DNA of 63,777 nt from a virus (lineage: Duplodnaviria; Caudoviricetes). The notes beneath the pieces were generated by a model. The model was not told the DNA's origin. It did no database searches and was given only the letters and a program-made list of their open reading frames with translations. Below, in pieces: positions 21,818 through 63,777 of the stretch. The position numbers and the translations under genes were made by a program. Numbering within the stretch: position 1 is the first letter of the stretch; each line of letters opens with the position of its first letter. The DNA is taken from positions 1 through 63,777 of IMG/VR virus record IMGVR_UViG_3300025013_000109; one strand, 5' to 3'.

Positions 21818-21932
21818 GCACGTTAGCTGCTGCCGATGTTCACGTTCGAATTCGAAGGACCGTTGTTCGCATTCGCCGACCCGAGGGCGCAATTGCTACC
21901 GTTATTCAAGTTCGCCCCGAAAAGCACACCGC
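21818..21932 (-). repeat. DGR1 template repeat (TR1)
   Basis: 115 bp ungapped match to 22166..22280; 19 mismatches, all at TR adenines on the - strand; AAC/AAT-rich. Confidence 0.95.
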
Positions 21933-22115
21933 AGAGAATGAGCCGCCCAGCCCCACCCCTACCCTCCCCGCACTTCGACAAGCTCAGTGACCAGGAGGGA
22001 GGAAGAAAGGCTTCGTTTATCTTCATTTTAAAATTCAATTTCATTCAATTCACTTTTTTCAAGTTTTTCGCTTTGCCAGGACTTTCAATTTTGAGGAGCC
22101 CGGCTGCGGTTTCGG

Positions 22116-22133
22116 CCTCGCTGAAACGCGAGG
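22116..22133. promoter_or_regulatory. GC hairpin just downstream of VR1 (candidate DGR target-recognition stem-loop)
   Basis: cctcgc-tgaaac-gcgagg, 16 nt past the target stop codon. Confidence 0.55.
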
Positions 22134-22149
22134 ATTTTTCGACCCCGAT

Positions 22150-30706: not shown

Positions 30707-30787
30707 CTTAAACTATTTACAATTTAACTATTTACAATTTACTATTGAACCCCAATTGCGCTGATCAAGGCGCAAATAGTAAATTGT

Positions 30788-32921: not shown

Positions 32922-33178
32922 AAAAGCCCCTCCCATCTTAATTTGCACAACACTACCCTCAAGGATAAATGTATATAAGACAGAAAGGGCCAAAAGTGTG
33001 ACCCGTTCTGTCCTTGAGGGAATAATGGATAAAAGTGTTGTGCGGGGGTAAAGATAAAGAGATTTACAATTTATTCATTTACGATTTGCGATTTAGGTAG
33101 AAAAAAAGCCTCACATTTTTGCGAGGCATTCGTTCCATAGCTGCGGAGAGCTTATTCGATATCCTACTTTTTTTGTTT

Positions 33179-33928: not shown

Positions 33929-34108
33929 TCAGTCTTTTACAATTATTATCATTTTCCCGTTTTCGACTGTGACATGCACTGTTTGGTGTGGCTGAAACCC
34001 GGCATCGGCCAACCAGTTTCCTTTTAGTGTGAGTTTTGGCACCTGGTGGTAATTGTCGTGGTACTTGCCTTTTACATACTCGGGTTGAAGCTTAATCACT
34101 TTTGTCAT
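33929..34108 (-). CDS. symE: SymE-family (type I toxin-like, AbrB fold) protein
   Basis: PKLTLKGNWLADAGF..V.V.VENGKMII signature; likely start ATG 34108. Confidence 0.8.
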   Translation of the reverse strand: MTKVIKLQPEYVKGKYHDNYHQVPKLTLKGNWLADAGFQPHQTVHVTVENGKMIIIVKD

Positions 34109-34145
34109 TTGTTGTACCACTGCCCTGTGGATTTATGTAGGCTGG

Positions 34146-34333
34146 CTCTCCTGTTAATTTTGAGCCAACACTGAATTGAGCAGACCGGAATTAGTCAAGG
34201 GCCACTTCGACACGTTCGGTTCGACTGCTTCGCGCTCACCGACCGTCTCAGTGACCGATCGAAGTGAGCTTGTATTACCCTTTACTTTTCCGGGATGCGA
34301 TCAATACCTTCGGGGCAAAATTGAGTGAGAGAG
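34146..34333 (+). promoter_or_regulatory. Long imperfect hairpin, Frpo-like ssDNA promoter A
   Basis: Arms attgagcagaccgga..gtcaaggg and ccctttacttttccgggatgcgatcaat; unpaired TACCTTCG -7 box; REP elements in the loop. Confidence 0.65.
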
Positions 34334-34472
34334 AACCTTCTGTGATTTACGATTAGCCTATTTACTATTTACAATTTGGGGTTAACAATGTGGACACCTC
34401 TGGAAACAATGTGGACACCTCGGGGCACAAAAAAAGGAGGCGTGAGCCTCCTCAGATTTGAAGTTGAAACGA

Positions 34473-36357: not shown

Positions 36358-36570
36358 AAATTAAATTACGGGTAGTATCCATTGAGCCGGGCGGAATCTA
36401 GTCAAGGGCGAATGTCAGGTTTAACGAGTTGCGGGTTTCGGGTTACGTGTTACGAGTTAAAGGTGACCGAGTGCGAAGCAAGGTTTAGTTATGTCTATAC
36501 CGCTAAACTAAACCACTAAACCTCCCTTTACTTTTCCGGGCGGCGATCAATAACTTTATCCGGAATTTGA
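36358..36570 (+). promoter_or_regulatory. Hairpin, Frpo-like element D
   Basis: attgagccgggcgga..gtcaaggg / ccctttacttttccgggcggcgatcaataacttta. Confidence 0.6.
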
Positions 36571-36648
36571 GTGTAACTACTTTCTCCGTCATCACCGGTA
36601 AGCCTGATTTTTAGAAACAACCAAAAAAAGGGGCGAAAGCCCCTTGAG

Positions 36649-36856: not shown

Positions 36857-37342
36857 TTACTGAATGAAATTTTCCTGATTAGCAAACTTTGATTCCACTT
36901 GTTCGCATCCCCATGCATCGCGCATATCTTCCATCGACATGATTTTACCTGACTTCTTGAAATATTCTCCTTTGTGCCAGTACCATGCCGTTTTCGGATG
37001 TGAGAATCGGTAACCTTCGCCTTTCAAAGTTTCCCTTACTGCGAAGGTGTTTCCGGTAATCCAGATCCATGAGCCAATCAGTTCGATTGTAATATCTGGT
37101 AAGCAGATGATCCGATCAAGCCGCTCGCGCATTTCTTCTGAAACCTGCTGCTCATATTCCTTCCTTGCTTCCGAAAAATCAGTATTACTGTTGATAAGCT
37201 TTCTTGAAAGCCGGTCATACAAATCATTGATCACCTGCATGATTGCCGTATCACCACCTTTGTCCGGGTGATACAAGAAAGCAAGGCGACGGTACTCCTT
37301 GCGCAATTCATCCAACGTCTTAACACCTTCAAAAAATTTCAT
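36857..37342 (-). CDS. J-domain (DnaJ-like) protein
   Basis: LRKEYRRLAFLYHPDKGGD (HPD motif) plus C-terminal GSWIWITGNT domain. Confidence 0.88.
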   Translation of the reverse strand: MKFFEGVKTLDELRKEYRRLAFLYHPDKGGDTAIMQVINDLYDRLSRKLINSNTDFSEARKEYEQQVSEEMRERLDRIICLPDITIELIGSWIWITGNTFAVRETLKGEGYRFSHPKTAWYWHKGEYFKKSGKIMSMEDMRDAWGCEQVESKFANQENFIQ

Positions 37343-37379
37343 AGTTTTTACCGCTGCCCTGCGGATTTATGTAGGCTGG

Positions 37380-37569
37380 CTCTCCTGTTAATTTTGAGCC
37401 AGCACCAATTGAGCAGACCGGATTCTAGTCAAGGGCGAATGTCAGTTTCGAGGCACGCAGAAAGTGACCGAGCGCGAAGCGTTGTTTATGCAAATCACAT
37501 CCGGGAAGCACAAACCCTTTACTTTTCCGGGATGCGATCAATAACTTCGGGCCAAAATTGTAGGAGAGA
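37380..37569 (+). promoter_or_regulatory. Hairpin, Frpo-like element E
   Basis: ctctcct/aggagag, aattttgagcc/ggccaaaatt, attgagca/tgcgatcaat, gtcaaggg/ccctttac pairing; TAACTTCG in a bubble. Confidence 0.65.
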
Positions 37570-38161
37570 TAATACCTCTCTGCCTGAATAGGCGCTTAGT
37601 CGGCATTCTCTTTTGGTTCTTTTCTCTGATGCCGGGCGGAAAATCTAAGTAGCAAAATCAGAGAAAAGAACGGCGCAAAATTTTCAGGCCGTAGGTGGTC
37701 CCTGAAAATTCAGATCCCGAGTACTCGGGAGATGGCGCAAGGTTCTTTTTGCCCGCTTTTTCTTACAAGAAAAAGCGTAGAGAAAGTTCTGTGCTTAGAA
37801 TCAATCTAAATAGTATTGATTTTCGCATCTAAAAAAAAGCAAAAAACTAAAATTCAAATAAATAGGTATCTAAAAGGGTGGAAAAACACCCTTCTACTTA
37901 TAGTTAATCCCGAACCGCCCTGATCGTCTTTTGTGCGCACAAGGTCAAAAATGGCGTTATATGCTGAAAGTTGCATATGTTCTGTATAGTGGAGGCTCTA
38001 TCCAAAAACCCATCGCACGGACGAAGGTAGTGCGATACCGAATGTGTTTGAAAGCAAAAAACAGGTGAATGCGAAGCACATTCTCCTGTTGTGGGTAGTG
38101 GAACAATCATTCTGAATTGAATGAAAGGATGTAATGAAATTATGAATGTTTGTGTATCGGG

Positions 38162-45457: not shown

Positions 45458-46852
45458 TTATTTAAGGGTTTTACCAAGGTATTCCTGTGATACAGCTTCG
45501 AGCTGTGAACCAAGGTCTTCGTGTTTAGAACTTACCGCGCCAGGTTTTACTGCGCCATCAACGTCTTGTTCTGTAACAGCAATGGCAGCTTGTTCGGCTG
45601 GTCCTGCTTTGAGGGTAGCGATTTCGCCCTGTAACGAGGCGATAGCCTGGTCGCGTTCGGTAACCAACTGTTCAGCGGCCGTTGCGGCCTCCTGGGCAGT
45701 TTGCAAACTGGCTTCAGCAGCAAGTCTGGCCGAATTTTCCAGTTCAAGTTGGTGTTCCAGTTCGGCTGAACCGGGTTCACCAATAGCAGTTTCGAGCGCC
45801 GTCATTTCATCTTCGGTGAAAGTGCGGCGACCATCGGCTTCGAATTCAAGTGAATCCTGGGCCAGGGCGGATTGGATTTTTGGAAACTTCATGGATGACT
45901 TAATTTTTGAATTATTATTTTCCGTCTGACCTCCTGAATTGGAAGCAGGGATTTCTTTTTTAGTGTAGTTGGCCAGCTCAATCACGCGGTTAACGGCATC
46001 GTCAAAACTTCCGATCCGGTCAACCAGTGAGCCTATCACTTCACCGGCCTGGAATGTGCGTCCATGCAGATGCTTATCTTCCACTCCCGAAAGTTGAGCC
46101 TTCATGTCGTTCACAAATTGAATCATATGAGGATTCAGTATTCTTTCTTTGGCAAGTTTGAAATCGAATTCATTAATGGCCGTTTCATATTCCTCGTTTT
46201 TTTCGAAAGCATCATCGGCATAAATGGTTACCTCGCGTTCTTTCATCATGTCTTCATCGCTTTTCGCAATGCGGCCCGAATAAACCAACATGGTACCAAT
46301 GCAACCAACCAGGTCGGTTGGTCTGGATGCAATACGCTCATTTGCAAACGCGCCAACATACATGTGCGCGCTGGCCATCATGCCATCGACCCACACTACA
46401 ATTGGTTTGGTACATTTCTGTATGGCATCGGTTAATTCCGGCACGGCATTGGCAGCACCACCCGGTCCTTCAATAATCATTACATGGCCAATTACCGATT
46501 CATCGTTATCAGCATTTATCAGCCTGCGGGCTAATGTTCTGGATCCAACCGGACCACATATCATATCGTTCTTCATCAGTACGCCACGTACCGGTAGTAC
46601 ATGCACTACTTTTTCGTAAGTAGGCTCATCAACTTCCGGAGCGTCATCGTCCTCGTCATCGTCCCAATAACTGGCGACTGGAGTAAGGGTGTTGGCTGAA
46701 ATGGCAAAAGGAATATTTTCTTTGGGTTCTGTTTCTTCAACAATCATGGCGCCGCCCAGCATCCCGCGAACGATTGGCATATATTGCTGTAATCCTCGTG
46801 CATGCAAATACCAGGGTGAACCAAAAATGTCTTTCGCGATAGAGTATTGCAT
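45458..46852 (-). CDS. S49-family prohead protease with C-terminal scaffold
   Basis: GPGG, MMASAHM, VGCIGT motifs; acidic coiled-coil C-terminus; start MQYSIAK at 46852. Confidence 0.88.
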   Translation of the reverse strand: MQYSIAKDIFGSPWYLHARGLQQYMPIVRGMLGGAMIVEETEPKENIPFAISANTLTPVASYWDDDEDDDAPEVDEPTYEKVVHVLPVRGVLMKNDMICGPVGSRTLARRLINADNDESVIGHVMIIEGPGGAANAVPELTDAIQKCTKPIVVWVDGMMASAHMYVGAFANERIASRPTDLVGCIGTMLVYSGRIAKSDEDMMKEREVTIYADDAFEKNEEYETAINEFDFKLAKERILNPHMIQFVNDMKAQLSGVEDKHLHGRTFQAGEVIGSLVDRIGSFDDAVNRVIELANYTKKEIPASNSGGQTENNNSKIKSSMKFPKIQSALAQDSLEFEADGRRTFTEDEMTALETAIGEPGSAELEHQLELENSARLAAEASLQTAQEAATAAEQLVTERDQAIASLQGEIATLKAGPAEQAAIAVTEQDVDGAVKPGAVSSKHEDLGSQLEAVSQEYLGKTLK

Positions 46853-46913
46853 AGTTGTAGCTTTTAAGCATACAACTTTACAATAGAACAAAGGGTAAAT
46901 AAAGGACTAAAGG

Positions 46914-51689: not shown

Positions 51690-52232
51690 TTATTAGTTTT
51701 TTATTGTTTTTTACAAAATTGTTAAATAGTTTTTTGGGTTACTTTTTATCACTTTTCTAATTTTTTGAACATTTTTTAATATTATTCGATTCAAAAAATC
51801 TATTGATTATTAAAAATTAATAAGCTGACATTGTTTTATTTGCTGTTTTTGATCGTTTTTCGGGCAAAAAAAATATTTTTTTTTTCAGAAGGTCTTTTTT
51901 TGTCCTTTCTCTATCCCGCGTTCCCGCGACTATCCGCATCGGATTAACACATTAATTTTCAACACCTTATTTTTATTAAAAGTTGGGGCACGGCTAAAAA
52001 CGTCCGTCCCGCCGTGACCCAGCGTGACCCAATTTTTAGTAATTTTTAGAGCGTGACCCAGCGTGACCCAGCGTGCCCGCAACACAGATAGAGAGATTAT
52101 TGGTTTTTTTATCATTATTATTATCCTTTATCGGTCTGGTTTTCAATGGCATGAGTTTTGAAAATTCGTTTTACTCTAATTTTTTGAGAGCGTGGGGCGC
52201 GGGGTGCGGGAACGCGGGAACGCGGGAACACC
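51690..52232. other. Putative replication origin
   Basis: AT-rich tract, four cgtgaccca iterons (52013..52070), inverted tcccgcgttcccgc (51915) / gcgggaac x3 (52206..52229); directly downstream of primase-helicase. Confidence 0.6.
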
Positions 52233-52322
52233 CTTTTGACTGTCAGTTGCTTTTTTTATTATTTTTTTCCTTGCACTGAGCTTGTCGAAGTGACCGTTGC
52301 TTGATTATGGAAATGTCCGGCT

Positions 52323-55300
52323 TCAGTATGGCAACCCATCTCCTTTTCCATTCGGATACATCTGCAATTGCAAACTGACGGCCTGTTGTTCGGGCGATGG
52401 TGGCTTCGCGCTCTCCATCTGGCTCGAACTACCCAAATCAATACCCAGCTTCTCGTAGTCCAACGCAATGGCGCTGGTGCGTTTCGATTCTTCGAACATG
52501 GTCGAAATTACCCTACCGCTTCCATCGTCGGCCAGATTGCGTATTTCGTTCTGCCATGTGAATGTGGTATGCTTTACCGCTCCCAGATAGGCTGGGTGAT
52601 CTTTCAGGTAGTTCTGGAGGTTGTTCATTTTCAAATGTTCCTGTATACCTACCTTATCCCGGTATTTGGGATGGATCACTTCCAAACGAACAAACAATAC
52701 TCTCTTTGGCCCTTCTTCAAAAGTCTTGATACTGCTGTTCTTTTGCCCTTCGCGAATGGTGATATCGTCGAGCAATTCAATCTTGTATTCCTTTCCACGG
52801 ATCAATCCATTGCGGGTATCTTCGGTGAGTTGTACAAACGTATCGAAGAACACGGCCAAGCGGTTCGAACTGGTAATGCTTTCGCTCTGGTGGATCAGCT
52901 GCTTTCGTGCAATCTGGTAAAACTCCTTGTAAGTGAATGGTAATTCCAGTCCGGGAATATGCTCTTCGAATAATTTCACCATGGCCAGAAACAGTGAAAT
53001 AGTATTCAATACGCGGTTTTGAAATCCGGAATGATCGTCGATTAAATCTTTTCGAAGTTCCTTTTGCACAATGCGAAGTTTGTTCTGGTAATGATCTCTA
53101 ACAATGGTGCGGCATTTCAATACTTCTACCAGTATCTCTGTAAGCCCTTCCTTCTCCCAGCGTTTCAGGAGTTGGAAATTGGCAATCTCGTTATCGCTCC
53201 ACAATTCTCTTTTTTGTACACTCAGTAGAACTGCTCTATTGCCAAGTGATGCATCATCACGTTCCGGAGCTTCCTGCCCCAACAAAATCGGAACGGCATT
53301 CACCTGGCTAACATCAAGCGCCATTCCTTGGGCGCCTTGCCGTTTGGTTTTTCCTTCACCGTCGTAAATACTGGCTTTAATTCCCTGAAACTTAATATCA
53401 GATATCTGCTGGTCGTTGTATTCTTCCATGATGACCGGAGCATCCCGGTAACGCTGGAGCATAGTAAAGAATGCGGCATCGGTTCCGGAGTTTAGGTTAA
53501 ACATCGGCGCATCGGGATGAATATACAGTGCACGGATCGATTGTGCCAATTGCGATTTTCCGCACTCTGTAGGGCCGATAAAAAACAGAGTGGTAAATAA
53601 CCGGTCAATCTTGAAAATGTCGCTCCGGAAGGCGCACATAATAGCCATAAGAACCGTCCAGCATCCATTGTCGTTGTATTTATATACTTCGCGCACCAGG
53701 GCAGCCCAGTCCTTGAAATTGACGTTTTTGTTTTCGCGGTAAATAAAAAAACGGTCGAGTGCAAACTGATCTTCATCCTTTCGAACGTCCTTATAGATGA
53801 CCGATATGGATGGCGAATAAAACGTGGTATCACCGTGCTCGATGAGCCCAAGTTCGTCCATGTATTTGATCTTGTTTTCGGCAAATACCGCATTACTGAA
53901 GGCATAGAAATCTTCGTTCTGCTGACCGAAAATGGTTAGTTCGTAGGCTACCGGGAACTGAAGCGCAATCGAGTCAAGAATGGTATCCAAATGAAATACT
54001 TTGGCATTCCGGAGCAGGTAAGGACCCTGACGAAATAGAAACTTTTTGAATGCCCCAAATTCAATCATTTCGTTGCTGGGGATCTCCACGTATTTCGACG
54101 AGCGCAAATCGGCATGGTTAAGTTTGCAGATGCGTTTATTCTTCAGCGGATCGTCGGAGAATACCTGAAACTGAGGTTCCATGTAGAAGTTACCAACCTT
54201 GGTCAGGGTGCCATGTTCGGTAGCAAATACATAGAATATCTTTTTGCCGTCTTTATTCTGGGCTGCAAAGTGATTGTATTTATTGAAGAACTTCTGATCG
54301 ACGTAATCGGGTAGTTTCTCAATCGAAAAAACGTAATGCTCATCGTCGATCATGATTTCCTCATTGCGCTGCTGTACCTTATTCTTTACCTTGCTCAGGA
54401 AAGGTTTCAGCACTTGCGCAAAATCGGCTTTCGAAAGACCGAAACGCTTGGCAATTTCGGCAGTCTTAATCGATATCGTTGTATTGTCCAGCTTACTCAG
54501 GAATTCGGCAGCCGTTTCAACAGCTTCTTTCTTCGAATCCGGATCATAAGCTTTCACACTTTCGGCCAGATAGTCAAAATAAAAGGTAGAGAACGACACG
54601 TATTCCTGATCATTTCCATACCGGTCGCCACAATTTAACGAAACTGCAAATCCGTTCTCGGCCAGAAACTTCATTTGCTTGACCTGCCGTTGAATTTTAA
54701 TAAGTTCTTCCGGAGATACTCCTGAGCCTGCGCGAATTGATGCAGAATGTTCGTAGTCAAACTCTTCGGCAAAAACTAAATTCTTAGTTATACCTGAAAG
54801 TTTTCCAATCTGTACGGCGGTCAATAATCCGGAGATAACAATCGAATTTGTTTCAAGATCCGATCCGGTATTGGCAAAAGCGGTTTCTTTTGAAGTGTAG
54901 ATAAATACCTGGTCTTTTTCGCGGATGGCTGTTTCGTTCACAATCATTCCGAATAGTTCGTCAGCCTTTTCTTCCTTGAAAATTCCGGCTTCTACCTTTT
55001 TGCGGTCGATACCGAATTTGTTGGCAACTTCCGAAAAGTAAGTTTCACGGGTAACCAGATCAGGAACTTTCTTAACAGTATCCAGTAACTCATTGATCAG
55101 CTTTCCTTTTTCGGCAGGTTTTTGCTCAATGTCTTTTGCGGCCAAATCGCACATCAGCAAAATAAAATCTTTCTCATTATCTTCAATCCAACGGTACAGT
55201 TCGTCGCGGCTTTTTCCTTTGGCAAACGTGTCGGGATCTTCACCTGTTGGCAATAGTGCCACATACACATTCAGCCCTTCGGCAATACAGATATCGATGC

Positions 55301-56258
55301 CTTTCACTGCTGCTTTCAAGCCTGCGCCGTCGCCATCGAACAGGATAGTCAGGTTACTGGTAAACCGGCGGATCAGCCGGGCATGTTCAACCGTTAAAGC
55401 GGTTCCCGAAGTGCAAATAGTATTGGTCAGTCCTTGTTTATGAAAGCGGATCACATCGGTATTGCCTTCAACCAGGTATGCCTTGCCCTCTTTTACGATG
55501 GCCGCTTTGGCCTGAAACAAACCGTACAATAACCGGCCCTTATGGAACAATTCAGTTTCCGGAGAATTAAGGTATTTGGAGTCGTTTTTACCCGGATTCG
55601 GGTCGAGTATACGTCCGGTAAAGCCAACCACATGCCCCATCAGATCGAAATACGGGAATATCACCCGATCGCGGAAGCGGTCGAAGTATTTACCGTTATC
55701 GCTTTTGCTTAATAAACCGGCTTTATGCAATTGCTGCGGATTATATCCCAGCGAACTCATGTATTCCAGTAATCCGCCCCAGGCAGTGGCAATACTTCCC
55801 AATTCAAATTTTGCCAGATCCATCCGGTCAAAATCGCGATCTTTCAAATAATTGATAGCCTGTCCGTGGTTTTTCAGGTTGTCGGCGTAAAATGTGGCTG
55901 CTACACGGTTCATCAGGAACATCGTATCGCGCTCACTCCGCTGCTGAAGTTCATCAGCGGTCATTTCAACCTTCGGAATCTCGACATGGTATTTTTTAGC
56001 CACGTATTCAATCGCTTCCGGATAAGTCATAACTTCATGCTCCATCACAAAGCTGATGGCATTACCTGCCTTTCCGCAGCCAAAGCATTTAAAAATACCC
56101 TTGGCCGGGCTGACGATCATTGACGGGGTTTTCTCGTTATGAAAAGGGCATACGCCAAGGTAATTTACGCCTTTCTTCTTCAGGTTCACAAATTCGGAAA
56201 CCACTTCGGTAATATTGGCGGCTGACAGTACTTTCTGGATAGTATCTTGTGGAATCAT
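52323..56258 (-). CDS. DNA primase (CHC2 zinc finger + TOPRIM) fused to a P-loop helicase-like domain
   Basis: CPFHNEKTPS..CFGC, KYLNSPET, VEGNTD, FDGDGAG; Walker A GPTECGKS, Walker B IMEEY. Confidence 0.9.
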   Translation of the reverse strand: MIPQDTIQKVLSAANITEVVSEFVNLKKKGVNYLGVCPFHNEKTPSMIVSPAKGIFKCFGCGKAGNAISFVMEHEVMTYPEAIEYVAKKYHVEIPKVEMTADELQQRSERDTMFLMNRVAATFYADNLKNHGQAINYLKDRDFDRMDLAKFELGSIATAWGGLLEYMSSLGYNPQQLHKAGLLSKSDNGKYFDRFRDRVIFPYFDLMGHVVGFTGRILDPNPGKNDSKYLNSPETELFHKGRLLYGLFQAKAAIVKEGKAYLVEGNTDVIRFHKQGLTNTICTSGTALTVEHARLIRRFTSNLTILFDGDGAGLKAAVKGIDICIAEGLNVYVALLPTGEDPDTFAKGKSRDELYRWIEDNEKDFILLMCDLAAKDIEQKPAEKGKLINELLDTVKKVPDLVTRETYFSEVANKFGIDRKKVEAGIFKEEKADELFGMIVNETAIREKDQVFIYTSKETAFANTGSDLETNSIVISGLLTAVQIGKLSGITKNLVFAEEFDYEHSASIRAGSGVSPEELIKIQRQVKQMKFLAENGFAVSLNCGDRYGNDQEYVSFSTFYFDYLAESVKAYDPDSKKEAVETAAEFLSKLDNTTISIKTAEIAKRFGLSKADFAQVLKPFLSKVKNKVQQRNEEIMIDDEHYVFSIEKLPDYVDQKFFNKYNHFAAQNKDGKKIFYVFATEHGTLTKVGNFYMEPQFQVFSDDPLKNKRICKLNHADLRSSKYVEIPSNEMIEFGAFKKFLFRQGPYLLRNAKVFHLDTILDSIALQFPVAYELTIFGQQNEDFYAFSNAVFAENKIKYMDELGLIEHGDTTFYSPSISVIYKDVRKDEDQFALDRFFIYRENKNVNFKDWAALVREVYKYNDNGCWTVLMAIMCAFRSDIFKIDRLFTTLFFIGPTECGKSQLAQSIRALYIHPDAPMFNLNSGTDAAFFTMLQRYRDAPVIMEEYNDQQISDIKFQGIKASIYDGEGKTKRQGAQGMALDVSQVNAVPILLGQEAPERDDASLGNRAVLLSVQKRELWSDNEIANFQLLKRWEKEGLTEILVEVLKCRTIVRDHYQNKLRIVQKELRKDLIDDHSGFQNRVLNTISLFLAMVKLFEEHIPGLELPFTYKEFYQIARKQLIHQSESITSSNRLAVFFDTFVQLTEDTRNGLIRGKEYKIELLDDITIREGQKNSSIKTFEEGPKRVLFVRLEVIHPKYRDKVGIQEHLKMNNLQNYLKDHPAYLGAVKHTTFTWQNEIRNLADDGSGRVISTMFEESKRTSAIALDYEKLGIDLGSSSQMESAKPPSPEQQAVSLQLQMYPNGKGDGLPY

Positions 56259-56316
56259 TCGGTTTGGATATTGTGTGTTACGGGTTATTTGGTTTAACTT
56301 TTAAAATTGACTGTTT

Positions 56317-57039
56317 TTATAGCCTGTATAAATATTCTGTTGACATTGGAATTTCTGTTATTCCTGACATATAAATCATTCGATTACAATCCCTGTCAAA
56401 AAAAACAACATTTCTTCTTGGCGTAATATATTTGGTATATATCTTGATTTTATTCCCTCTAGCATCATACATTTTTTTAATTGTTTCCCTGAAGCTATCT
56501 GATTTTGAATTGCCAATGTAGCATTCAAAGCAAATTGTTGTTGTTTTACAGAGTATAAATACAGGCTGTCTGGAACCACATATTTCACAAGTCCTAATTG
56601 CCAATTCGGTTCCCCAAAAACAGTTTATAGTGTCTATTTTAGATTTATTCTGTCTGGTAGTTTCTTTGCCTTTTTCCCAACATTGAAAAGCCGTTAAGCC
56701 TGATTCAATCACTTCTCCAGTTGCTATATTAAGCTGAAGTATGGGTTTTACTTCTAAACCGGAAATAACATAAAACATGCGACTAAAAACATTAAGTAAC
56801 CATTTTTCGAACCTATATTGAATTCCGTTAATGGTATTGCCTTTTTTAGTAAATAGGTATTGTTTTAAGTATGTTGAGAACTGCATTTCACGTATTTCGA
56901 ATGGAATACTTAAAAAGTAAAATGTCAATATCCCGATTGATAAACTATCTGAATTGCATTCAAAATAGGGCTCATGCGTAAAATGCCGTTCTCTAAACCC
57001 ATTTGTATGGCTAAGAATTACCCAATTAATCTGGTTCAT
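56317..57039 (-). CDS. AT-rich hypothetical protein with CxxC motifs
   Basis: 240 aa, CEIC..CFEC; composition differs from neighbours. Confidence 0.55.
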   Translation of the reverse strand: MNQINWVILSHTNGFRERHFTHEPYFECNSDSLSIGILTFYFLSIPFEIREMQFSTYLKQYLFTKKGNTINGIQYRFEKWLLNVFSRMFYVISGLEVKPILQLNIATGEVIESGLTAFQCWEKGKETTRQNKSKIDTINCFWGTELAIRTCEICGSRQPVFILCKTTTICFECYIGNSKSDSFRETIKKMYDARGNKIKIYTKYITPRRNVVFFDRDCNRMIYMSGITEIPMSTEYLYRL

Positions 57040-57051
57040 TTTCTTATAGTG

Positions 57052-57384
57052 TTAATCCTTGTTATCCGTAGTTTTCACCTTTTTAAACAGAAAAAAAGCA
57101 ATCATGCTATCCTCCTCCAGATAAGGGTATTTTTGTTTCAGGTGGCGGCTGGTCCATGCGGCATCGTGGCCGTAAGTAATCTCACAAATCAGGTTGCTCA
57201 TTGTGCCGAGTGGGTATCTGAAAAAATCGCCACGTATCACCTTTGTTTCGTTTTTACCGTCAACAATCACCATTTCAGTGGGATTCTCGGCAATATCAAT
57301 CAGGTCTTTTTGTGGCGCTGGAAATGCCAGAAAAAACGTTGCGGTATCGGGGATTTGTGCTTCAATGCGTTTGGGTTCGGTCAT
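57052..57384 (-). CDS. Hypothetical protein
   Basis: 110 aa co-oriented ORF. Confidence 0.6.
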   Translation of the reverse strand: MTEPKRIEAQIPDTATFFLAFPAPQKDLIDIAENPTEMVIVDGKNETKVIRGDFFRYPLGTMSNLICEITYGHDAAWTSRHLKQKYPYLEEDSMIAFFLFKKVKTTDNKD

Positions 57385-57397
57385 TTTATATCTCTAA

Positions 57398-58135
57398 TTA
57401 TAATAGTGTGTATTGCACTCCGTAATTGTAATCCCTGCTTAACTCCTCCAGTGCTTTCATTCCCTTTGCCATTGTTGGTGAGTTCATCGAACCAGCCATT
57501 TCGGGAGTTACCTCAATCGTTTTGCTTGTTTGCTCCAGCTCCAATTTAAAGCCTGCTGCTTTTATTTTTCGGTTCAGGTAATACTTGCGATCATAAGTTT
57601 CGAGGCTTTTAACTGGCGGCATTAATTCAAAAGCCTTAAACAGGGTTTCTTTTTCCCATCCTTTTACCAACTCAAAAACTGCCGTCTGGATCCGTACATA
57701 TTTAAAAGTCTTCCTGGGCAAAATGGTGATCGATTTCAACCCAAATGTTTTCAGGTACCGGAGTCGAACGTCTGAATCGGAAATGGTGAATAATGGCATC
57801 AGGGCAATAATGCGATCCGACATTTTCATACACTCCTGAAGGATATAGTATCCAAGTCGTAATCCTTTCAAATTAAGGTCTTCCGGGACTCTAAACGCAT
57901 ACTTCATCGAGAAAGGCGGGTTCATGATGATACAATCATATCGCGATGGATCCAGCGTGAAAAAATTATCGGGAGCGGTTACCTGAAAATCTTCCAAAAA
58001 TTTCAGGATATTTCCTTCACCGGGAGTTGGCTCCAATATGGTTACGGTTTCTTTTGGAATCAAACTACACATGTATTCGGCAACTGCTGCAGGTGTTTGG
58101 AATTCGGCTCCGATTTCAAATTTGGTTTGGGTCAT
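57398..58135 (-). CDS. Amino (N6-adenine type) DNA methyltransferase
   Basis: FQTP, ILEPTPGEGNI, IIMNPPF motifs. Confidence 0.85.
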   Translation of the reverse strand: MTQTKFEIGAEFQTPAAVAEYMCSLIPKETVTILEPTPGEGNILKFLEDFQVTAPDNFFTLDPSRYDCIIMNPPFSMKYAFRVPEDLNLKGLRLGYYILQECMKMSDRIIALMPLFTISDSDVRLRYLKTFGLKSITILPRKTFKYVRIQTAVFELVKGWEKETLFKAFELMPPVKSLETYDRKYYLNRKIKAAGFKLELEQTSKTIEVTPEMAGSMNSPTMAKGMKALEELSRDYNYGVQYTLL

Positions 58136-58162
58136 AAATCGATGGATTGAAGGATTGAATTA

Positions 58163-58915
58163 TTAAAGGATTGATTGCGGCCTGCCGGTGGTTGACAACA
58201 CTTTAACTTTCACCACCCAAACCCACGGGTTTTGCTCCCAGCTTTCGGGTCCGTTAATTTTACCCCACAGAGATTGAAAGGAAGTGATAGCCTGGAGAAA
58301 ACCGGATTTATCGTCTGGATTATTATAATTTTTAAACCTCCAGTTGATCGTAAAAAATCTTGTTACACCTTCAGCAATCGCGTCTTTCTCCGTAACATCC
58401 TGCAACCGTTCCACCTTTATTTCTTCAATCTGTAACCAAATTCGGGCGGCGGATTTGGGCATAAACCGGGGCGACTTCCATTTCACTTCTTTGGCCAAAG
58501 CTTCGTCGTGCCACTGACAGGCGGTTTCGCCTTTCATATCATCGTTCGGGTAAAAACTCCAGTGAAAACTGTCGGCAAAATAGCTGTAAGTTGTTTCCGG
58601 CTCATACTTGCCCAATGTGCAGGCGAATTTTTCCCGCACCCAAAGCACATCACCCGGTTGACCGTAAGGGCATTCTATGGGTTCAACGCAATAGCCTGGG
58701 CTTTCAATAATTGAATTTGAATTTTTATCAAAAATAAATGGCTCTTTGGGTTGTGGTTTTACAATTCTCCTGGTCAGGGTTTTCCGGCCTTCCAGATTTG
58801 CCTGCACCATTGGGGTACTGTAGATGATTGGTTTTGAAGCCCCACCCCAACCCTCCCCAAACGGGGAGGGAGCCGGAACCGCTTCGTTTAACATTTTTGT
58901 TTTTTGCATGATCAT
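58163..58915 (-). CDS. ASCH/PUA-like phage protein
   Basis: GRKTLTRR, CPYGQPGDVLWVRE, FMPKSAARIWL, SWEQNPWVWV; in-frame REP near N-terminus. Confidence 0.8.
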   Translation of the reverse strand: MIMQKTKMLNEAVPAPSPFGEGWGGASKPIIYSTPMVQANLEGRKTLTRRIVKPQPKEPFIFDKNSNSIIESPGYCVEPIECPYGQPGDVLWVREKFACTLGKYEPETTYSYFADSFHWSFYPNDDMKGETACQWHDEALAKEVKWKSPRFMPKSAARIWLQIEEIKVERLQDVTEKDAIAEGVTRFFTINWRFKNYNNPDDKSGFLQAITSFQSLWGKINGPESWEQNPWVWVVKVKVLSTTGRPQSIL

Positions 58916-58979
58916 AGATTTATTTTATTCAATGCGACACCCCCTCCGTTTGCCTGCCTGTCCGGTAGGCAGGGAGGGG

Positions 58980-59993
58980 TTAGGGGAGGCTTTTCGGCCA
59001 TTCGTGCCATTCCTTCCCATCAAGCAGATCACCGGCAGCTTTGCGGCCAACTTTAGCATAAACCATACGATGATCAGTTATGCCTTTTAAAATCGAAAGC
59101 GGATATTTTTTTACATCTCCTATATTGGCCGATACCCATTCCCCCCACTGCTTAAAGAAAAACGGCACTCCGGCTTTCTGGCATTGATCTCGGATCGTTC
59201 TAACCCAATCGGGGTGCATGGGCCGGGCCTTGGGTCCCGATTCACCTCCACAGATTACCCAATCGAGTCCTTTTTCAATGACATTATTATCGTGCGTAAT
59301 TGAATTATTATCAAGCGAATCAATAGCATGAATTGAACTATCTGCAATCCAGGCTAAATCCACCGGCCCCAGCATCGGCTCAATGCTCACAAACCGTTTG
59401 GCGGCAGGTATCTGGAGTAAGATTGGGATTCGTTTATTGGCTTCCTCCTGATTTTCGGCGGTAACTCCGAGCCATAGGTTTGGAAAATTGGCGGCAACAT
59501 TACTATTCTTAAGCCAGGAGAAAAACTTCGCCATGCTTTCGGGACGTTTGGTAAGAACGACGAAAATATGAGTTGGTTTGTCGTGGATAACCTGAAAAAC
59601 CAACTTTTTAAATTCGTGTGAAACTGATTCGTGAAACAGGTCGCCCATAGAGCATACGAAGATCATGCGTGGAGTTTTCCATTTAAAGGGGATAAGAAGC
59701 TGCTCCTGACGAAAAATCGTATGGCCGTTCCATGAAGTTTGTTTGTTATTTTGATCTGGAAACAGGACGCATTTGTAGTCAAGGCTTACTGACTGATTGG
59801 GCATTGAAGCCAAACGTACAGCCATTCGTTCGGCATAGCAATTGTCGCATCCTGGCGATACTTTGCTACAACCAACAATCGGGTTCCATGTTTCGGGTTT
59901 GTAGCCTGGCATATTGAGCCAGGAGATTTTATGCAGTTTGCCGCGTTGTCCGGCTTCAATCTGATCGTGGTAATGTTCTTTGGTCGCTGACAT
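58980..59993 (-). CDS. DUF5131 / Gp37Gp68-family protein
   Basis: WNPIVGCSKVSPGCDNCYA, FVCSMGDLFH, WVICGGESG, PFFFKQWG. Confidence 0.9.
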   Translation of the reverse strand: MSATKEHYHDQIEAGQRGKLHKISWLNMPGYKPETWNPIVGCSKVSPGCDNCYAERMAVRLASMPNQSVSLDYKCVLFPDQNNKQTSWNGHTIFRQEQLLIPFKWKTPRMIFVCSMGDLFHESVSHEFKKLVFQVIHDKPTHIFVVLTKRPESMAKFFSWLKNSNVAANFPNLWLGVTAENQEEANKRIPILLQIPAAKRFVSIEPMLGPVDLAWIADSSIHAIDSLDNNSITHDNNVIEKGLDWVICGGESGPKARPMHPDWVRTIRDQCQKAGVPFFFKQWGEWVSANIGDVKKYPLSILKGITDHRMVYAKVGRKAAGDLLDGKEWHEWPKSLP

Positions 59994-60059
59994 GATTTTA
60001 AAATTTACTATTTTGTTATTTACTATTTACTATTTGTTGTTTGGGTGAGAGAGGGGGCA

Positions 60060-60365
60060 TTAGGTAAATAAGTATCTCTCATTTTCTTCAACTATTGTGG
60101 TGGTAAAAGGGAATCCGGTTTCCGGAATCTTCTGAATCACTTCAATCAAGCCGGTTGATCCGGTAAAAACAACATGTTTTCGCTGATCAAATGATATTTG
60201 CAAACACAAACATTTACCTGATCCTCGCTCTTTAAATACTTTCGAGTCTTCAATTCTGAAATGATGGACCACAATTTCACGGTTCATAATCTTCGACATT
60301 TTAATCTTGTCTCCTTCAAAAGCCTGGCTTTCGACCTTGATATTGAACTGGCTAAACGTGTTCAT
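60060..60365 (-). CDS. DGR-linked ~100-aa protein, homolog of 19798..20115
   Basis: Overlaps the RT2 stop; motif similarity to 19798..20115. Confidence 0.8.
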   Translation of the reverse strand: MNTFSQFNIKVESQAFEGDKIKMSKIMNREIVVHHFRIEDSKVFKERGSGKCLCLQISFDQRKHVVFTGSTGLIEVIQKIPETGFPFTTTIVEENERYLFT

Positions 60366-61311
60366 GGAGCAATTTTTTCAGAAGGTTTTTACTGTCGCAG
60401 TGCGATGCCCATCCATTGTATGATGCAATTGATTTGGCGTTCCGGTTACGGACCATCATCCGTGCAAAGTTTTTCTTGATGCTCTTCCGGAGCAGCGTAT
60501 GAGTGTGACGGAAGACATAACCGACAAAATCAATTCCCCGTTCATCGACCGGGAATATTTGATAGTTACCTTTGACGGTAAGCTTCAGCCGGTCATTCAG
60601 ATAAGTCCTGATTTCAGCAAGTAATTGATGTAAATAATGCTTGCTGCTTGAAAGGATTACAAGATCATCGGCATAGCGGAAATAGTATCTCACCTGTCTA
60701 TTTTCCTTCATCCAGTGATCAAAATAGCTCAGGTAAAAATTGGCAAAATACTGGCTCAGGTAATTTCCGATCGGAAGGCCATCGGTTGAATCAATAATCT
60801 CATTGAGAAGCCACAGTAGGTCATTATCCTTTATTTTTCGACGGAGCAGCTGCTTGAGTATTTCATGATCAACATTCGGGTAAAACTTGGTGATGTCCAG
60901 CTTCAGGCAGTATTGGGTATTGTCAACATCTTTCAGGGCACGTTTCACCGCATTGGCCGCAGCGTGGATGCCTTTGCCTTTGATGCAACTGTAAGTATCG
61001 GCAGTAAATGTTGAGACAAAAATCGGCTCAAGGACGTTCATCACAGCGTGATGGGTGATCCGGTCAGGAAAATAAGGCAACCGGAAGATCAGCCGCTCTT
61101 TAGGTTCAAAGATGGTGAACGTGGTATATTCAGACGTTTGATAAGTTTTCTCCTTCAGCATTTCATGAAGCTTTTGAATGTTTTCTTCCCGATTCCGGTC
61201 ATGCTCGATTACTCCAGGTTGTTTCGATTTACCTTTCCGGGCAATCGTATCAGCCAACTGGAGGTTTTCGATGCTGTAAATTTTCTCGTACAAATTATTG
61301 ATCCGTTTCAT
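60352..61311 (-). CDS. DGR reverse transcriptase (RT2)
   Basis: FPDRITHHA, KLDITKFYP, GLPIGNYLSQ, RYADD, IDFVGY; start reassigned to MKRINNLY at 61311. Confidence 0.95.
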   Translation of the reverse strand: MKRINNLYEKIYSIENLQLADTIARKGKSKQPGVIEHDRNREENIQKLHEMLKEKTYQTSEYTTFTIFEPKERLIFRLPYFPDRITHHAVMNVLEPIFVSTFTADTYSCIKGKGIHAAANAVKRALKDVDNTQYCLKLDITKFYPNVDHEILKQLLRRKIKDNDLLWLLNEIIDSTDGLPIGNYLSQYFANFYLSYFDHWMKENRQVRYYFRYADDLVILSSSKHYLHQLLAEIRTYLNDRLKLTVKGNYQIFPVDERGIDFVGYVFRHTHTLLRKSIKKNFARMMVRNRNAKSIASYNGWASHCDSKNLLKKLLHEHV

Positions 61312-61444
61312 GTTTGGTTCCTGAGCCCGTCGAAGGGCCTTTGCTTTTAATGGATCGTTTTCTCCCGAGTACTCGGGATACCAACGCTCCGTTAAAGAAT
61401 TCGTTATTTTTTGCACTGTTGGCAAGGTCTACACTGAAAGTTTC

Positions 61445-61525
61445 GCATAGGTGAGAGCTGACATTCGTATTCGTGTTATCGTAGTTGTAATTCGAGTTCG
61501 AAAAACTGAAACTGGAAGACAGAAC
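61445..61525 (-). repeat. DGR2 template repeat (TR2)
   Basis: Matches 61639..61719 (17/81 mismatches) and 62052..62129 (16/78); all mismatches at TR adenines. Confidence 0.95.
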
Positions 61526-61557
61526 TAACAGCAACGCAGCGTACAACCTTTTTTATT

Positions 61558-61965
61558 TCACTCCGGATACAGGAAGAATTCCTGGTATTCGGCCTTGAAC
61601 TGTTCTGCTATATAAAGGGCCTTTTCACTTGTATCAGTGCAAAGGCGAGAGCCGACACACGTATGCGAGTAAGCGCAGAGGTAACCCGAGTACGAAAAAC
61701 CGAAACCGGAAGACAGAACCCTATACCATGGGAAGTATTTGTATTGCGATAATTTGCTCCAGTCTGGACGCCATCCGTCGTTTATCGCCTTGAAAATAAT
61801 CAGGAGTTTATAAGCGTTGATGATTGGCTTTCTGAACTCTTTCGGGATCATCGATACATCGGGCAATGCAGTTGGATCAATGTTTTCTTTTGTACAAGCA
61901 TCCTCGAATGTTTTGATTGTTCTGAAATCGAATACAGGTTGGTTTTTCACTGATTTTTTGGCCAT
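61558..61965 (-). CDS. DGR2 target protein A
   Basis: 135 aa; contains VR2a; paralog of 61971..62435. Confidence 0.9.
   Translation of the reverse strand: MAKKSVKNQPVFDFRTIKTFEDACTKENIDPTALPDVSMIPKEFRKPIINAYKLLIIFKAINDGWRPDWSKLSQYKYFPWYRVLSSGFGFSYSGYLCAYSHTCVGSRLCTDTSEKALYIAEQFKAEYQEFFLYPE
61639..61719 (-). repeat. DGR2 variable repeat VR2a
   Basis: Encodes VLSSGFGFSYSGYLCAYSHTCVGSRLC. Confidence 0.93.
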
Positions 61966-61970
61966 GATTT

Positions 61971-62435
61971 TTATTTTTTAATGGTTATAAATTGTTCGTA
62001 GATATCAAGGAATTGCTTGGCTGCATAAGTGCATTTAGCCTCAGACTCGAAGCAAAGGCGAGAGCCGACAGACGTAAACGTGACAACGTAGTAGTAACAC
62101 GAGTACGAAAAACCGAAACCGGAAGACAGCTTGAAGTAAGGCCACCATTTTTGCTGATTGGCATTGTCCCAATCGGGTGTCCAGTTCTGGTTAATTGCCT
62201 TTGCGATAACCTTTAATTTTTTGTAGGCTACTTCATCAGAGCAGTCATTTGCGTTGAATACATCTTCCGGATATATTTCCAGTTCTTCGCAAGCATCCTC
62301 AAAGGTTTTAATGTCTTCGAAGGTTTTTTTCTTGAAACAGTCATCTCCAAATGTTTCGGTTAATACTTTCCGGAACCACTCTGGTGATTCGGGATAGAGT
62401 TTTTTTGCAGTTGTTTTTTCAAGTGTTAATTTCAT
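61971..62435 (-). CDS. DGR2 target protein B
   Basis: 154 aa; IKTFEDAC..AYKKL..I.KAIN..W.PDW shared with target A; contains VR2b. Confidence 0.9.
   Translation of the reverse strand: MKLTLEKTTAKKLYPESPEWFRKVLTETFGDDCFKKKTFEDIKTFEDACEELEIYPEDVFNANDCSDEVAYKKLKVIAKAINQNWTPDWDNANQQKWWPYFKLSSGFGFSYSCYYYVVTFTSVGSRLCFESEAKCTYAAKQFLDIYEQFITIKK
62052..62129 (-). repeat. DGR2 variable repeat VR2b
   Basis: Encodes LSSGFGFSYSCYYYVVTFTSVGSRLC. Confidence 0.93.
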
Positions 62436-62635
62436 GATTTTAAAGTTGTTTTTATTACTTGGTTACTATTCAATTGCTTTTTATCAGCAGCCGGTGCATA
62501 AGTCCCATGCATCGTTTTTTGATGGCGTGGCGAGTTCAGGAGTAAATCAGTTTCAATTAATTCTTCACGGGAACAGTTGCGGAGAAATTGCTCCGGAGTT
62601 ACCTCCAGCGAGAACATCTTATCGAGTTTTGGCAT
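62432..62635 (-). CDS. Hypothetical protein
   Basis: 67 aa, 4-bp overlap with target B. Confidence 0.6.
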   Translation of the reverse strand: MPKLDKMFSLEVTPEQFLRNCSREELIETDLLLNSPRHQKTMHGTYAPAADKKQLNSNQVIKTTLKS

Positions 62636-62656
62636 AAAAGTTAACTTATAGGTTAA

Positions 62657-62881
62657 TTATTGTAAAAATTGGAAGGGCCAGTGACCAATCGGACGCATTG
62701 ACCAATAGAAATTTTGCCTTTGCGACCGGTCTATTTTTAGTTTTCCGTGCAACCTTATTTCCTTCTGTATCAGCTTGCAATTGTGTTGCCTGATGGCGTA
62801 TTTCATAGATGTGCATCCGGTAAATGATGACAATTGCAACCACAGAACCAGAAGTGCAATAACTTTTACTGATCTTTTCAT
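62657..62881 (-). CDS. Putative small lipoprotein
   Basis: Basic + hydrophobic N-terminus and FTGC lipobox-like motif. Confidence 0.5.
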   Translation of the reverse strand: MKRSVKVIALLVLWLQLSSFTGCTSMKYAIRQHNCKLIQKEIRLHGKLKIDRSQRQNFYWSMRPIGHWPFQFLQ

Positions 62882-63270
62882 TTGGCTAATTTTCGGCGGT
62901 GATATTCGGTCGGAACGTATGATTTTCGGATGACTTCGTGAAAAAGTTGCCCTTCGCCTTTACAGGTTGTACATGGGTGAAATTCAATTTCTTCTTTTCG
63001 GTCATCAGGGAATATCTTCCGGCATTGGCTACCTCCACAATCAGGACAGGTAATAATCATTCCATGTGTTTTCTGGAATATGGCAGGCCGGTCTTCATTG
63101 GCCGGGTCTTCCAACATTCGTTTCAGCTTCATTGCACGGTCGCGTAGTTCTATTGATCCGAATTGATGGGAGAGCATGGCTTCCATGGCTTCGCGTACCA
63201 GATACTTCGTTTCTTGGTCCATCTGCAGCGATTGTTCGTGGTGGTCAGTTTTGGTGAGTTTTGTAATCAT
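62878..63270 (-). CDS. Hypothetical protein with CxxCxGxG zinc finger
   Basis: CPDCGGS and CTTCKGEG. Confidence 0.65.
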   Translation of the reverse strand: MITKLTKTDHHEQSLQMDQETKYLVREAMEAMLSHQFGSIELRDRAMKLKRMLEDPANEDRPAIFQKTHGMIITCPDCGGSQCRKIFPDDRKEEIEFHPCTTCKGEGQLFHEVIRKSYVPTEYHRRKLAK

Positions 63271-63542
63271 TGGTTTTGGAGGTTAATAAATTCGGTCATT
63301 AGTTTTTTAAAGCACCGGTGACTTTCGCTTGGTATTAGTCCACGTATTTCGCTGCGGTGATGGTCCCAGAACCGGCGCATTTTATCGTCGGTATTGTAAG
63401 GATAGAATTCAAGCTGATTTTTTAAATGCTCGCGGGCTTGCTTAACTGCGCCGTGATCGATGTACCGGTAACCTTTCGCTTCAATTTTTTTCTGAAGGCG
63501 AATCAGCTTCTCGATATATTGTCGGGCTTCCTGGGCAAACAT
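63267..63542 (-). CDS. Hypothetical protein
   Basis: 91 aa, coupled overlap. Confidence 0.6.
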   Translation of the reverse strand: MFAQEARQYIEKLIRLQKKIEAKGYRYIDHGAVKQAREHLKNQLEFYPYNTDDKMRRFWDHHRSEIRGLIPSESHRCFKKLMTEFINLQNQ

Positions 63543-63564
63543 GGGACGAATATTTACGATTTAT

Positions 63565-63777
63565 TTATTTGCTATTTACCATTTCAATCATCTGTTCACC
63601 AAAATCGCGCGACATGCGGGTGTATTGCAACGATAGGGCGGCGATGGTAATTTGTCGTTCCAGGTCAGGATCCTTCTCGGCAGCTTCGGCAAGCTTATCG
63701 CCAAAGTCGGTAACCTCGCCACCATAAATAATAATCCTACGGCTGCCGTCTTTTAAATTGGCTATTCCTGATTTCAT
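63565..63777 (-). CDS. Hypothetical protein at window edge
   Basis: 70 aa ORF starting at the last base of the window. Confidence 0.5.
   Translation of the reverse strand: MKSGIANLKDGSRRIIIYGGEVTDFGDKLAEAAEKDPDLERQITIAALSLQYTRMSRDFGEQMIEMVNSK

Follow-up and report, generated by a model that had tools for sequence, protein, structure and literature searches.

What does a phage diversify when one of its tail proteins already has a diversity-generating retroelement (DGR) of its own? The question is raised by DGR2, the second such element in the IMG/VR virus record IMGVR_UViG_3300025013_000109 (Caudoviricetes), whose full 63,777 nucleotides are referred to here as the window. The DGR variable proteins described in the literature that we consulted are C-type lectins (CLec), and the phage targets described there are mostly tail proteins. 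We found that DGR2 has a single template repeat (TR) that serves a variable repeat (VR) in each of two small tandem paralogous genes, termed A and B, which lie among early genes. The DGR anatomy of this cassette is certain. Its two targets are best explained, with a probability of roughly 0.55, as a hypervariable intracellular binder employed in phage-host or phage-phage conflict, their location and binding being inferred from the features presented below.

Organization of the DGR2 cassette

The genes in this region are all carried on the minus strand, and the order of transcription is gene A, gene B, TR, spacer, reverse transcriptase (RT), and a gene for a 101-aa protein. The features are as follows, with ends that resemble the initiation of mutagenic homing (IMH) element, or its TR counterpart IMH*, marked as such.

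61971-62435, minus strand: gene A, the long paralogue, an open reading frame (ORF) of 154 aa matching phrog_11581 (E 1.6e-26)
62052-62129, minus strand: VR-A, the VR of gene A, 78 nt homologous to the TR and located by TR match
62071-62105, minus strand: diversified tract of VR-A, residues 111-122 of A, from the column spectra of 94 VR/TR pairs
62052-62069, minus strand: invariant IMH-like end of VR-A, its last 18 nt
61558-61965, minus strand: gene B, the short paralogue, an ORF of 135 aa lacking the first ~35 residues of A and matching phrog_11581 (E 3.7e-24)
61639-61716, minus strand: VR-B, the VR of gene B, 78 nt, located by TR match
61658-61692, minus strand: diversified tract of VR-B, residues 92-103 of B
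61639-61656, minus strand: IMH-like end of VR-B
61445-61522, minus strand: TR core, 78 nt with 22 adenines, 36 nt beyond gene B
61445-61462, minus strand: IMH*-like end of the TR, its last 18 nt, with three fixed positions unlike both VRs
61312-61444, minus strand: non-coding spacer of ~133 nt between the TR and the probable RT start
60352-61311, minus strand: DGR2 RT, 319 aa from the ATG at 61311, matching RVT_1 and phrog_1423
60060-60365, minus strand: gene for the 101-aa protein, overlapping the RT stop by 14 nt and conserved after the RT

Gene B starts 5 nt past the end of gene A, and the TR, when read in the frame of the VRs, gives LSSSFSFSNSNYNYDNTNTNVSSHLC. The open frame of the RT extends upstream to a TTG at 61425; the probable start is nevertheless 61311, because RT homologues, including that of DGR1 (the tail-protein element) and the cluster protein P0272, begin at the corresponding MKR. 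The spacer is the site of insertions and deletions relative to locus L001, which is otherwise 99.5% identical.

A first-pass annotation of the window had proposed that one TR serves both paralogues, and the 78-nt TR was indeed matched to a segment in each gene. The same annotation had placed the VRs within the proteins rather than at their ends. Both VRs were found to be in frame with exactly 26 codons after each, and among 139 related VR-bearing ORFs the tail was likewise 26 codons long in 95 and 23 codons long in another 23. The comparison of VRs with the TR also bore out the flanks described as common to the two repeats (SSGFGFSYS and VGSRLC) and the differing centres between them.

Adenine-directed exchange and a putative coding homing signal

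All 16 mismatches between VR-A and the TR fall on TR adenines (hypergeometric P 4e-12), as do all 17 of those between VR-B and the TR (hypergeometric P 4e-13). We found a TR in 57 related loci, ~194 nt past the last VR, where VRs were matched on non-adenine TR positions only. Across the resulting 94 unique VR/TR pairs, 1388 of 1423 mismatches were on TR adenines and 35 elsewhere. Columns 20-56 of the 75-nt core were diversified, with TR adenines kept in about 12-70% of the VRs and all four bases occurring at these sites. The rewritten codons in these pairs are VR codons 9 and 11-20 (11 codons), and the TR of the window permits ~1.2e10 protein variants per VR.

Outside the diversified tract, the differences between TR and VR are fixed. 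They comprise three positions in the 5' flank (G in 16/16, a synonymous Ser change; G in 54/55; and G in 82/83) and three in the 3' flank (G in 91/92, G in 86/86, and T in 79/79). The last of these is a synonymous Leu difference, CTA in the TR and CTT in the VR; the TR of the L039 lineage has C at this position while its VR keeps T. The shared flanking substitutions had first been read as selection on a scaffold around a variable loop. Such selection can account for at most part of them, since a synonymous difference fixed across the family has no explanation at the protein level and points to an IMH/IMH*-like cis element lying beyond the mutagenised tract. The 18-nt VR end, GTCGGYTCNCGCCTTTGC, was nearly invariant as DNA in both paralogues (27 + 27 sequences). 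Judged from these sequence patterns, it is suggested that the VR end is an IMH-like homing signal embedded in coding sequence, and that the TR carries an IMH* version of it. Exceptions in the 5' flank are rare (Cys in P0001, Ser in L046) and would fit the imprecise 5' boundary described for the BPP-1 DGR (Wu 2018).

No conserved stem with compensatory changes was detected by RNAalifold downstream of the VRs in 27 A-type and 27 B-type regions, nor was a GC-rich inverted repeat found downstream of the IMH-like element, the only stem being one of 3 bp inside it. It was noted that two of the fixed 3' differences, G in the VR and A in the TR, lie on opposite sides of this GGY/GCC stem with its 4-nt loop, so that it could form in the VRs and not in the TR; at 3 bp, it is too short to be called a structure.

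In the mechanism that we propose, the RT would copy the TR transcript with errors opposite adenines, and the resulting cDNA would replace a ~35-nt tract in each of the two paralogous genes. Eleven codons would be rewritten in this manner; in the structural model, these are flanked by a helical scaffold on one side and the conserved C-terminal helix on the other. The 18-nt VR end would act as the homing signal, with the TR version disabled, and A and B would be expressed as part of the early transcription that starts directly after a CI/Cro-like switch.

Variation of the VRs between near-identical phages

Invariance of the VRs across populations had been named beforehand as an outcome that would refute the proposed hypervariable binder pair. 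We found that the VRs vary between near-identical phages. The window and locus L002 differ at 19 positions over 3021 nt, nine of them in VR-A and all nine on TR-adenine sites (clustering P 3.7e-10); the other ten are confined to the end of the 101-aa gene (3' side), with none in the rest of A, B, the TR, or the RT. In the L039 lineage, the 4705 nt aligned between L039 and L040 contain 12 differences, 11 in the B-type VR and one 14 nt upstream of it, with 9 of the 12 on TR adenines. The BLAST alignment of L039 with L034 held 21 mismatches and 4 gap openings over 4081 columns, and the 23 positions listed divide into 11 within the A-type VR and 12 that lie inside the B-type VR or immediately upstream. 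Because these near-identical contigs differ almost only in their VRs, DGR2 is, by contig comparison, a recently active element.

A conserved pair of targets and its natural fusions

We scanned IMG/VR and obtained 258 pattern matches, of which 110 encode a relative of the targets and 80 loci were kept. Of these, 59 had two copies of the VR peptide motif, 10 had one, 4 had three, and 7 had none. An adjacent long and short pair was present in 46 loci, and 41 of the pairs were unique. The tree built from the 82 proteins of these pairs separated long from short forms, which were reciprocally monophyletic, by one branch (Shimodaira-Hasegawa-like approximate likelihood ratio test, 100). Their position on opposite sides of a single branch indicates that the duplication is old and that both copies have been kept.

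All 12 of the longer relatives were double-domain proteins of 282-349 aa with no other Pfam domain, one of them present on 11 contigs, and further double-domain fusions were encountered in L078/L079 and P0121-P0123. The conserved pairing together with these natural fusions suggests that the two domains work as one unit, the pairing of A with B being inferred in this way. Co-folding of A and B from separate alignments gave scores of 0.43, 0.09, and 0.11, with the median below the mark, and the tool made no call.

It was also noted that L078 and L079 each carry a 318-aa fused ORF with two VRs. The L078 fusion lies ~40 kb from L029, a complete A-B-TR-RT cassette on the same 61-kb viral contig, and lacks a TR in its vicinity; the L029 DGR probably serves it as a remotely located target pair.

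Fold of the target proteins

Both A and B belong to phrog_11581, a phage-specific family without an assigned function, and neither had a Pfam match above the cut-off. The family is large: 428 relatives of A of similar length were found at E <= 1e-3, and a profile search of 1.84 billion cluster representatives returned 4291 at E <= 1e-3, 2626 at E <= 1e-10, and 288 at E <= 1e-30. A search of the ESM Atlas with A returned unnamed viral clusters only. Among phage GenBank records, there was no nucleotide match to window positions 52000-63777, and the protein search gave one distant match only, in Dulem virus 41 (27% identity).

We modelled A with AlphaFold2 from a 139-sequence alignment (predicted local distance difference test, pLDDT, 87.6; predicted template modelling score, pTM, 0.76). 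This model replaced an earlier one from 38 sequences, which had a pLDDT of 73.5 and values below 50 in the VR. The predicted helices span residues 7-16, 19-29, 31-34, 45-52, 66-82, 132-141, and 143-150, and the strands span 97-102 and 108-114, followed by a loop. The predicted architecture is therefore an N-terminal helical extension and a helix-helix-strand-strand-VR loop-helix core, where the diversified residues form the end of the second strand and the loop after it (block pLDDT 65-73).

The first-pass annotation had left the choice between a minimal CLec and a new fold to a structure search. Against 350,542 PDB chains, Foldseek returned no match to the A model at E <= 1e-3 (best E 0.99, TM 0.16), and its five matches at this threshold in BFVD were all uncharacterised phage proteins, including ones from a crAss-like virus and the uncultured phage cr128_1. 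Profile searches of the PDB by sequence recovered no DGR variable protein at E <= 10. No lectin, FGE-sulfatase, or DUF1566 family occurred among the 25 most-matched of 67 Pfam families (139 members, E <= 1). With a confident model and no PDB match, no C-type lectin was detected, and as far as the modelling reaches the scaffold of A and B appears to lack a recognisable C-type-lectin fold, although it may be a very reduced C-type lectin.

That the scaffold is a minimal, divergent C-type lectin with a short C-terminal helix added is an alternative that we consider doubtful, and it is compatible with any of the functional readings weighed below. The VR ending VGSRLC resembles the GFR-type endings of CLec VRs, and the VRs of the minimal CLec variable proteins TvpA and TaqVP end, like those of the DGR2 targets, in a G-x-R-L/V-type strand. 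The modelled order of helix, helix, strands, and VR is also loosely CLec-like. Roux 2021, in the portion consulted, expects uncharacterised VR domains to be new C-Lec variants. However, neither the PDB structure search, the PDB profiles, nor the Pfam families listed returned anything of this kind.

The claim that the two proteins lack a signal peptide or transmembrane segment held under the 19-residue Kyte-Doolittle means, which reach maxima of 0.70 and 0.74 for the two proteins; no membrane-like segment or signal peptide was seen in A or B by hydropathy and inspection, the only means applied.

The RT and its candidate partner

The RT matches RVT_1 (E 6.9e-18) and phrog_1423 (E 1.4e-133), and contains the motifs IGNYLSQ and YADD; a [ILV]GxxxSQ motif is described as a mark of DGR RTs (PMC11054128). 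One prophage thus holds two DGRs, with related RTs (that of DGR2 is 48% identical to that of DGR1), separate TRs, and very different targets. DGR1 occupies window positions 20714-23565, with its TR at about 21815-21932, its VR at about 22163-22280, and a 471-aa tail-protein target (phrog_5302).

Within the 80 IMG/VR loci, the RT was present in 68 and the 101-aa gene, directly after the RT, in 65, both at fixed offsets, while each of the other neighbours seen in the window occurred in at most 13. The 101-aa protein had a mean column identity of 72%, above that of the targets, and it had no Pfam or PDB relative in Pfam scans and a PDB profile search. In three metagenomic protein clusters of 415-416 aa (P0270-P0272), the RT carries the 101-aa domain at its C-terminus: residues 1-315 of P0272 match the RT (81% identity) and residues 316-416 match the 101-aa protein (66%). 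Based on these fusions, the 101-aa protein is proposed as a partner of the RT, and these sequence data make it a candidate for a new DGR accessory factor in place of Avd. Avd is a common though not universal DGR component, and no PF05635 match was found on the cassette proteins. Elsewhere in the host genome, PF05635 (23S_rRNA_IVP, to which Avd belongs) gave 15 matches, 14 of them above the curated cut-off, and none of the 15 is on C92, the contig that carries the prophage.

Other identities for the 101-aa protein were set aside. An ESM Atlas cluster at rank 19 pointed to Phi29_Phage_SSB, which 44% of its members carried, but Pfam scans gave no Phi29_Phage_SSB match for any of 49 family members and the PDB profile search was empty. 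The protein was unrelated on comparison to the product of the gene after the DGR1 RT. With a pI of 7.8, it is also set apart by size and charge from the CH1 proteins, considered here by description only as 160-169 aa with a pI of ~4.7 (Wu et al. 2018, PMC5758913). In addition, the 3954-nt contig L102 from a Prolixibacteraceae metagenome-assembled genome (MAG) was observed to carry the 101-aa gene directly after the A/B pair with no RT match between them; it may be a deletion derivative of the cassette.

Distribution of the cassette

A scan of contigs from one genome per species identified 41 loci, 25 of which possessed both the RT and the 101-aa gene. Judged by the titles of their records, 39 of the 41 come from lineages of Bacteroidota, with the remaining two from Ignavibacteria and from a Bacilli MAG. 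The cassette is a widespread conserved module. It also resides in cultured strains, namely Maribellus mangrovi FJH33, Flavobacterium sp. AED, Chryseobacterium koreense CCUG 49689, Epilithonimonas sp. UC225_85, and Paludibacter sp. 221, and these prophages make the questions raised here directly testable.

Genomic setting and possible roles of the targets

The window corresponds to C92:21959-85735 (minus strand) of a 4.99-Mb genome in 105 contigs, in which A, B, and the TR are the sole copies of their family. Beyond window position 63777 lie a CI-like helix-turn-helix gene on the opposite strand, a Cro-like helix-turn-helix gene, a LuxR/GerE-type regulator, and a tRNA-Met (L125:17838-19570), and the multihaem cytochrome genes of the host end at L125:17649, adjoining the CI-like end. 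The cassette is situated ~3.5 kb downstream of this switch with five small window genes preceding A, and A and B are oriented with the Cro-like and replication genes, opposite to the CI-like gene. Downstream of the cassette are genes for a DUF5131 protein, an unnamed 250-aa protein (phrog_874), a methyltransferase, and a primase; beyond the primase come the genes for head, tail, and DGR1, and an integrase gene is the last of the series. The nearest head or tail PHROG match among the genes scanned is a head protease at 45458-46891, ~15 kb away. The placement of the targets among early genes and far from morphogenesis, as first described, is thus upheld.

The neighbourhoods of 40 other loci were examined at three ORFs to each side (120 upstream, 117 downstream). 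These held mostly unnamed PHROGs, regulators or a sigma factor, replication genes, DNA methyltransferases, and nucleotide metabolism genes. The Dulem virus 41 relative likewise sits among small early genes. Five sigma-70-like promoter sites were found against 9.0 expected from shuffles, so that no separate promoter stands out, and a search for att sites revealed no repeat longer than 12 nt common to the tRNA-Met region and the end with the integrase.

The place of the cassette in the early operon, the missing export signals and structural signature, the pairing and fusions, and the DNA-modification neighbours together favour a role for A and B as a hypervariable binder inside the cell. The reasoning is the same as that of Benler et al. 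2021 for the second target of Quimbyvirus. Several observations weigh against this reading. The location of A and B and any ligand are surmised from indirect evidence, and the absence of export signals was judged only by hydropathy and inspection. The Foldseek miss is compatible with a stripped-down C-type lectin, which the expectation of Roux 2021 noted above would favour. Among the 237 neighbouring ORFs, there were four terminase large subunits (two PHROG families), three head maturation proteases, and two tail completion proteins, so the cassette sometimes borders a late module. Moreover, VR-B is identical in the window and three near-identical relatives, and across seven near-identical locus pairs VR-A differs in one and VR-B in none; activity on B in the window phage is hence deduced from its adenine-only mismatches and from the related phages.

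A rather unlikely alternative is that A and B are associated with the virion, for instance as decoration proteins or as small adaptors for receptor binding whose genes happen to lie outside the morphogenesis module, and that DGR2 tunes adsorption as DGR1 does. Most of the phage DGR targets described in the consulted part of Roux 2021 are tail or receptor-binding proteins, and a few related loci have terminase, head protease, or neck genes next to the cassette. It also favours this alternative that the phage of the window already has a DGR for a tail protein. However, the distance of DGR2 from the nearest scanned head or tail gene, its place directly after the lysogeny switch, the absence of a structural PHROG or Pfam match in the 139 family members, the mostly regulatory, replicative, and DNA-modifying flanks of the other loci, and the early-gene setting of the Dulem virus 41 relative all speak against a virion role.

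It is unlikely that A and B serve the lysogen, in exclusion or as a sensor of incoming phages, or act extracellularly after lysis on the surfaces of neighbouring cells. The cassette is close to the immunity region of a temperate phage, and in the closest precedent, as far as it was consulted, the phage DGR target belongs to an island related to defence (Benler 2021, PMC8008677). Yet the two genes run with the Cro-like and replication genes and not with the CI-like gene, and they show neither a promoter of their own that stands out nor an export signal. Finally, that the cassette is a decaying relic with old VR differences is very improbable. VR-B does not vary among the four near-identical sequences, but the RT and the TR are undamaged and A and B both keep open frames; VR-A differs at nine TR-adenine sites between contigs otherwise identical over ~2.9 kb, and the same VR-restricted differences recur in a related lineage for both paralogue types.

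Returning to the intracellular binder, its fullest form is a more tentative proposal: in temperate phages of Bacteroidota, a dedicated DGR without Avd and with a new RT-bound accessory protein would continuously rewrite the loops of an early, intracellular, non-lectin binder of two domains that neutralises fast-evolving proteins of host defence or of rival phages.

Additional repeats in the prophage

An AT-rich motif (TTTAC[TA]ATTTA repeats on the plus strand; repeat family D2) was observed in seven copies, five of them immediately upstream of minus-strand gene starts, and it may be a phage-specific promoter or leader element. Two copies bracket four small genes and the DGR2 cassette.

63544-63586, minus strand: AT-rich motif copy immediately upstream of the gene start at 63542
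59995-60037, minus strand: AT-rich motif copy between the 101-aa gene and the DUF5131 gene (start 59993)
12053-12095, 13599-13641, 13666-13708, 30707-30749, and 33054-33096: the remaining AT-rich motif copies

Runs of a 7-nt unit (GGGTTAC and variants; family D1) occur at 5571-5644, 31495-31554, and 36415-36488. In the middle of the prophage, several segments of 60-70 nt recur a few kb apart with 77-90% identity, 34105-34335 matching 37339-37572 and others lying at 36361-36421 and 36523-36581 (D3, D10, D11); these suggest that small genes or regulatory regions were duplicated. The 299-aa gene upstream of the DGR1 target contains three tandem 48-nt repeats at 23925-24068 (71-73% identity; D8).

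Comparison with known DGRs and implications

As described by Wu 2018 in the part consulted, the BPP-1 DGR (mtd-avd-TR-brt) shares with DGR2 the order of target, TR, and RT, the adenine-specific transfer from TR to VR, an AAY-rich TR, a GC-rich IMH-like VR end with a non-identical counterpart in the TR, and a spacer before the RT, which is ~133 nt here. DGR2 differs in that its target is not a tail fibre and has no detected CLec, in its two tandem targets, and in its internal VRs followed by 26 codons. It also lacks Avd, has another conserved gene after the RT, and shows no conserved hairpin downstream of the VR.

The second DGR target of Quimbyvirus (Benler et al. 2021, PMC8008677) is similarly encoded at a distance from structural genes, next to methyltransferases and other conflict genes, and a non-structural role was proposed for it. 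In that account, however, the target has a CLec domain, is a single gene, and shares its TR with a structural target, and the RT is frameshifted, whereas DGR2 is a second DGR dedicated to two small paired proteins in which no lectin fold was detected. TvpA and TaqVP (PDB 2Y3C, 5VF4; PMC11054128) are, like A and B, small soluble DGR variable proteins with no known ligand in the source consulted; A and B have no structural or sequence match to these, their VR is not C-terminal, and they are paired or fused. The avd-less DGRs with CH1 reported by Wu et al. 2018 (PMC5758913) also lack avd, HRDC, and MSL and have a conserved small flanking gene of unassigned fold; the 101-aa gene, in contrast, lies directly after the RT and is fused to it in some genomes.

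The target family was not described in the DGR literature that was searched, although the supplementary target and VR-class tables of Roux 2021 and Wu 2018 may list it, and large surveys probably hold these loci as unnamed clusters in their supplements. DGRs are known elements, yet several features of this one were not encountered in print: the target family and a fold that is apparently not that of a lectin, the obligate pairing of targets in tandem or by fusion, a VR that is internal and has its IMH in coding sequence, the location among early genes, and the 101-aa protein associated with the RT.

The cassette departs from the usual picture of a DGR in its large family of small, paired, early-encoded targets with no detectable lectin fold, and in having no Avd but a conserved protein that can be fused to the RT. 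If the fold is new, it would add to the scaffolds known to tolerate massive variation and would be useful for protein engineering. If A and B are intracellular, DGRs would take part in phage counter-defence as well as in adsorption. Should the antibody-like reading of A and B be true, they would represent the first DGR scaffold outside the lectins and the first case of a phage early protein with programmed hypervariability.

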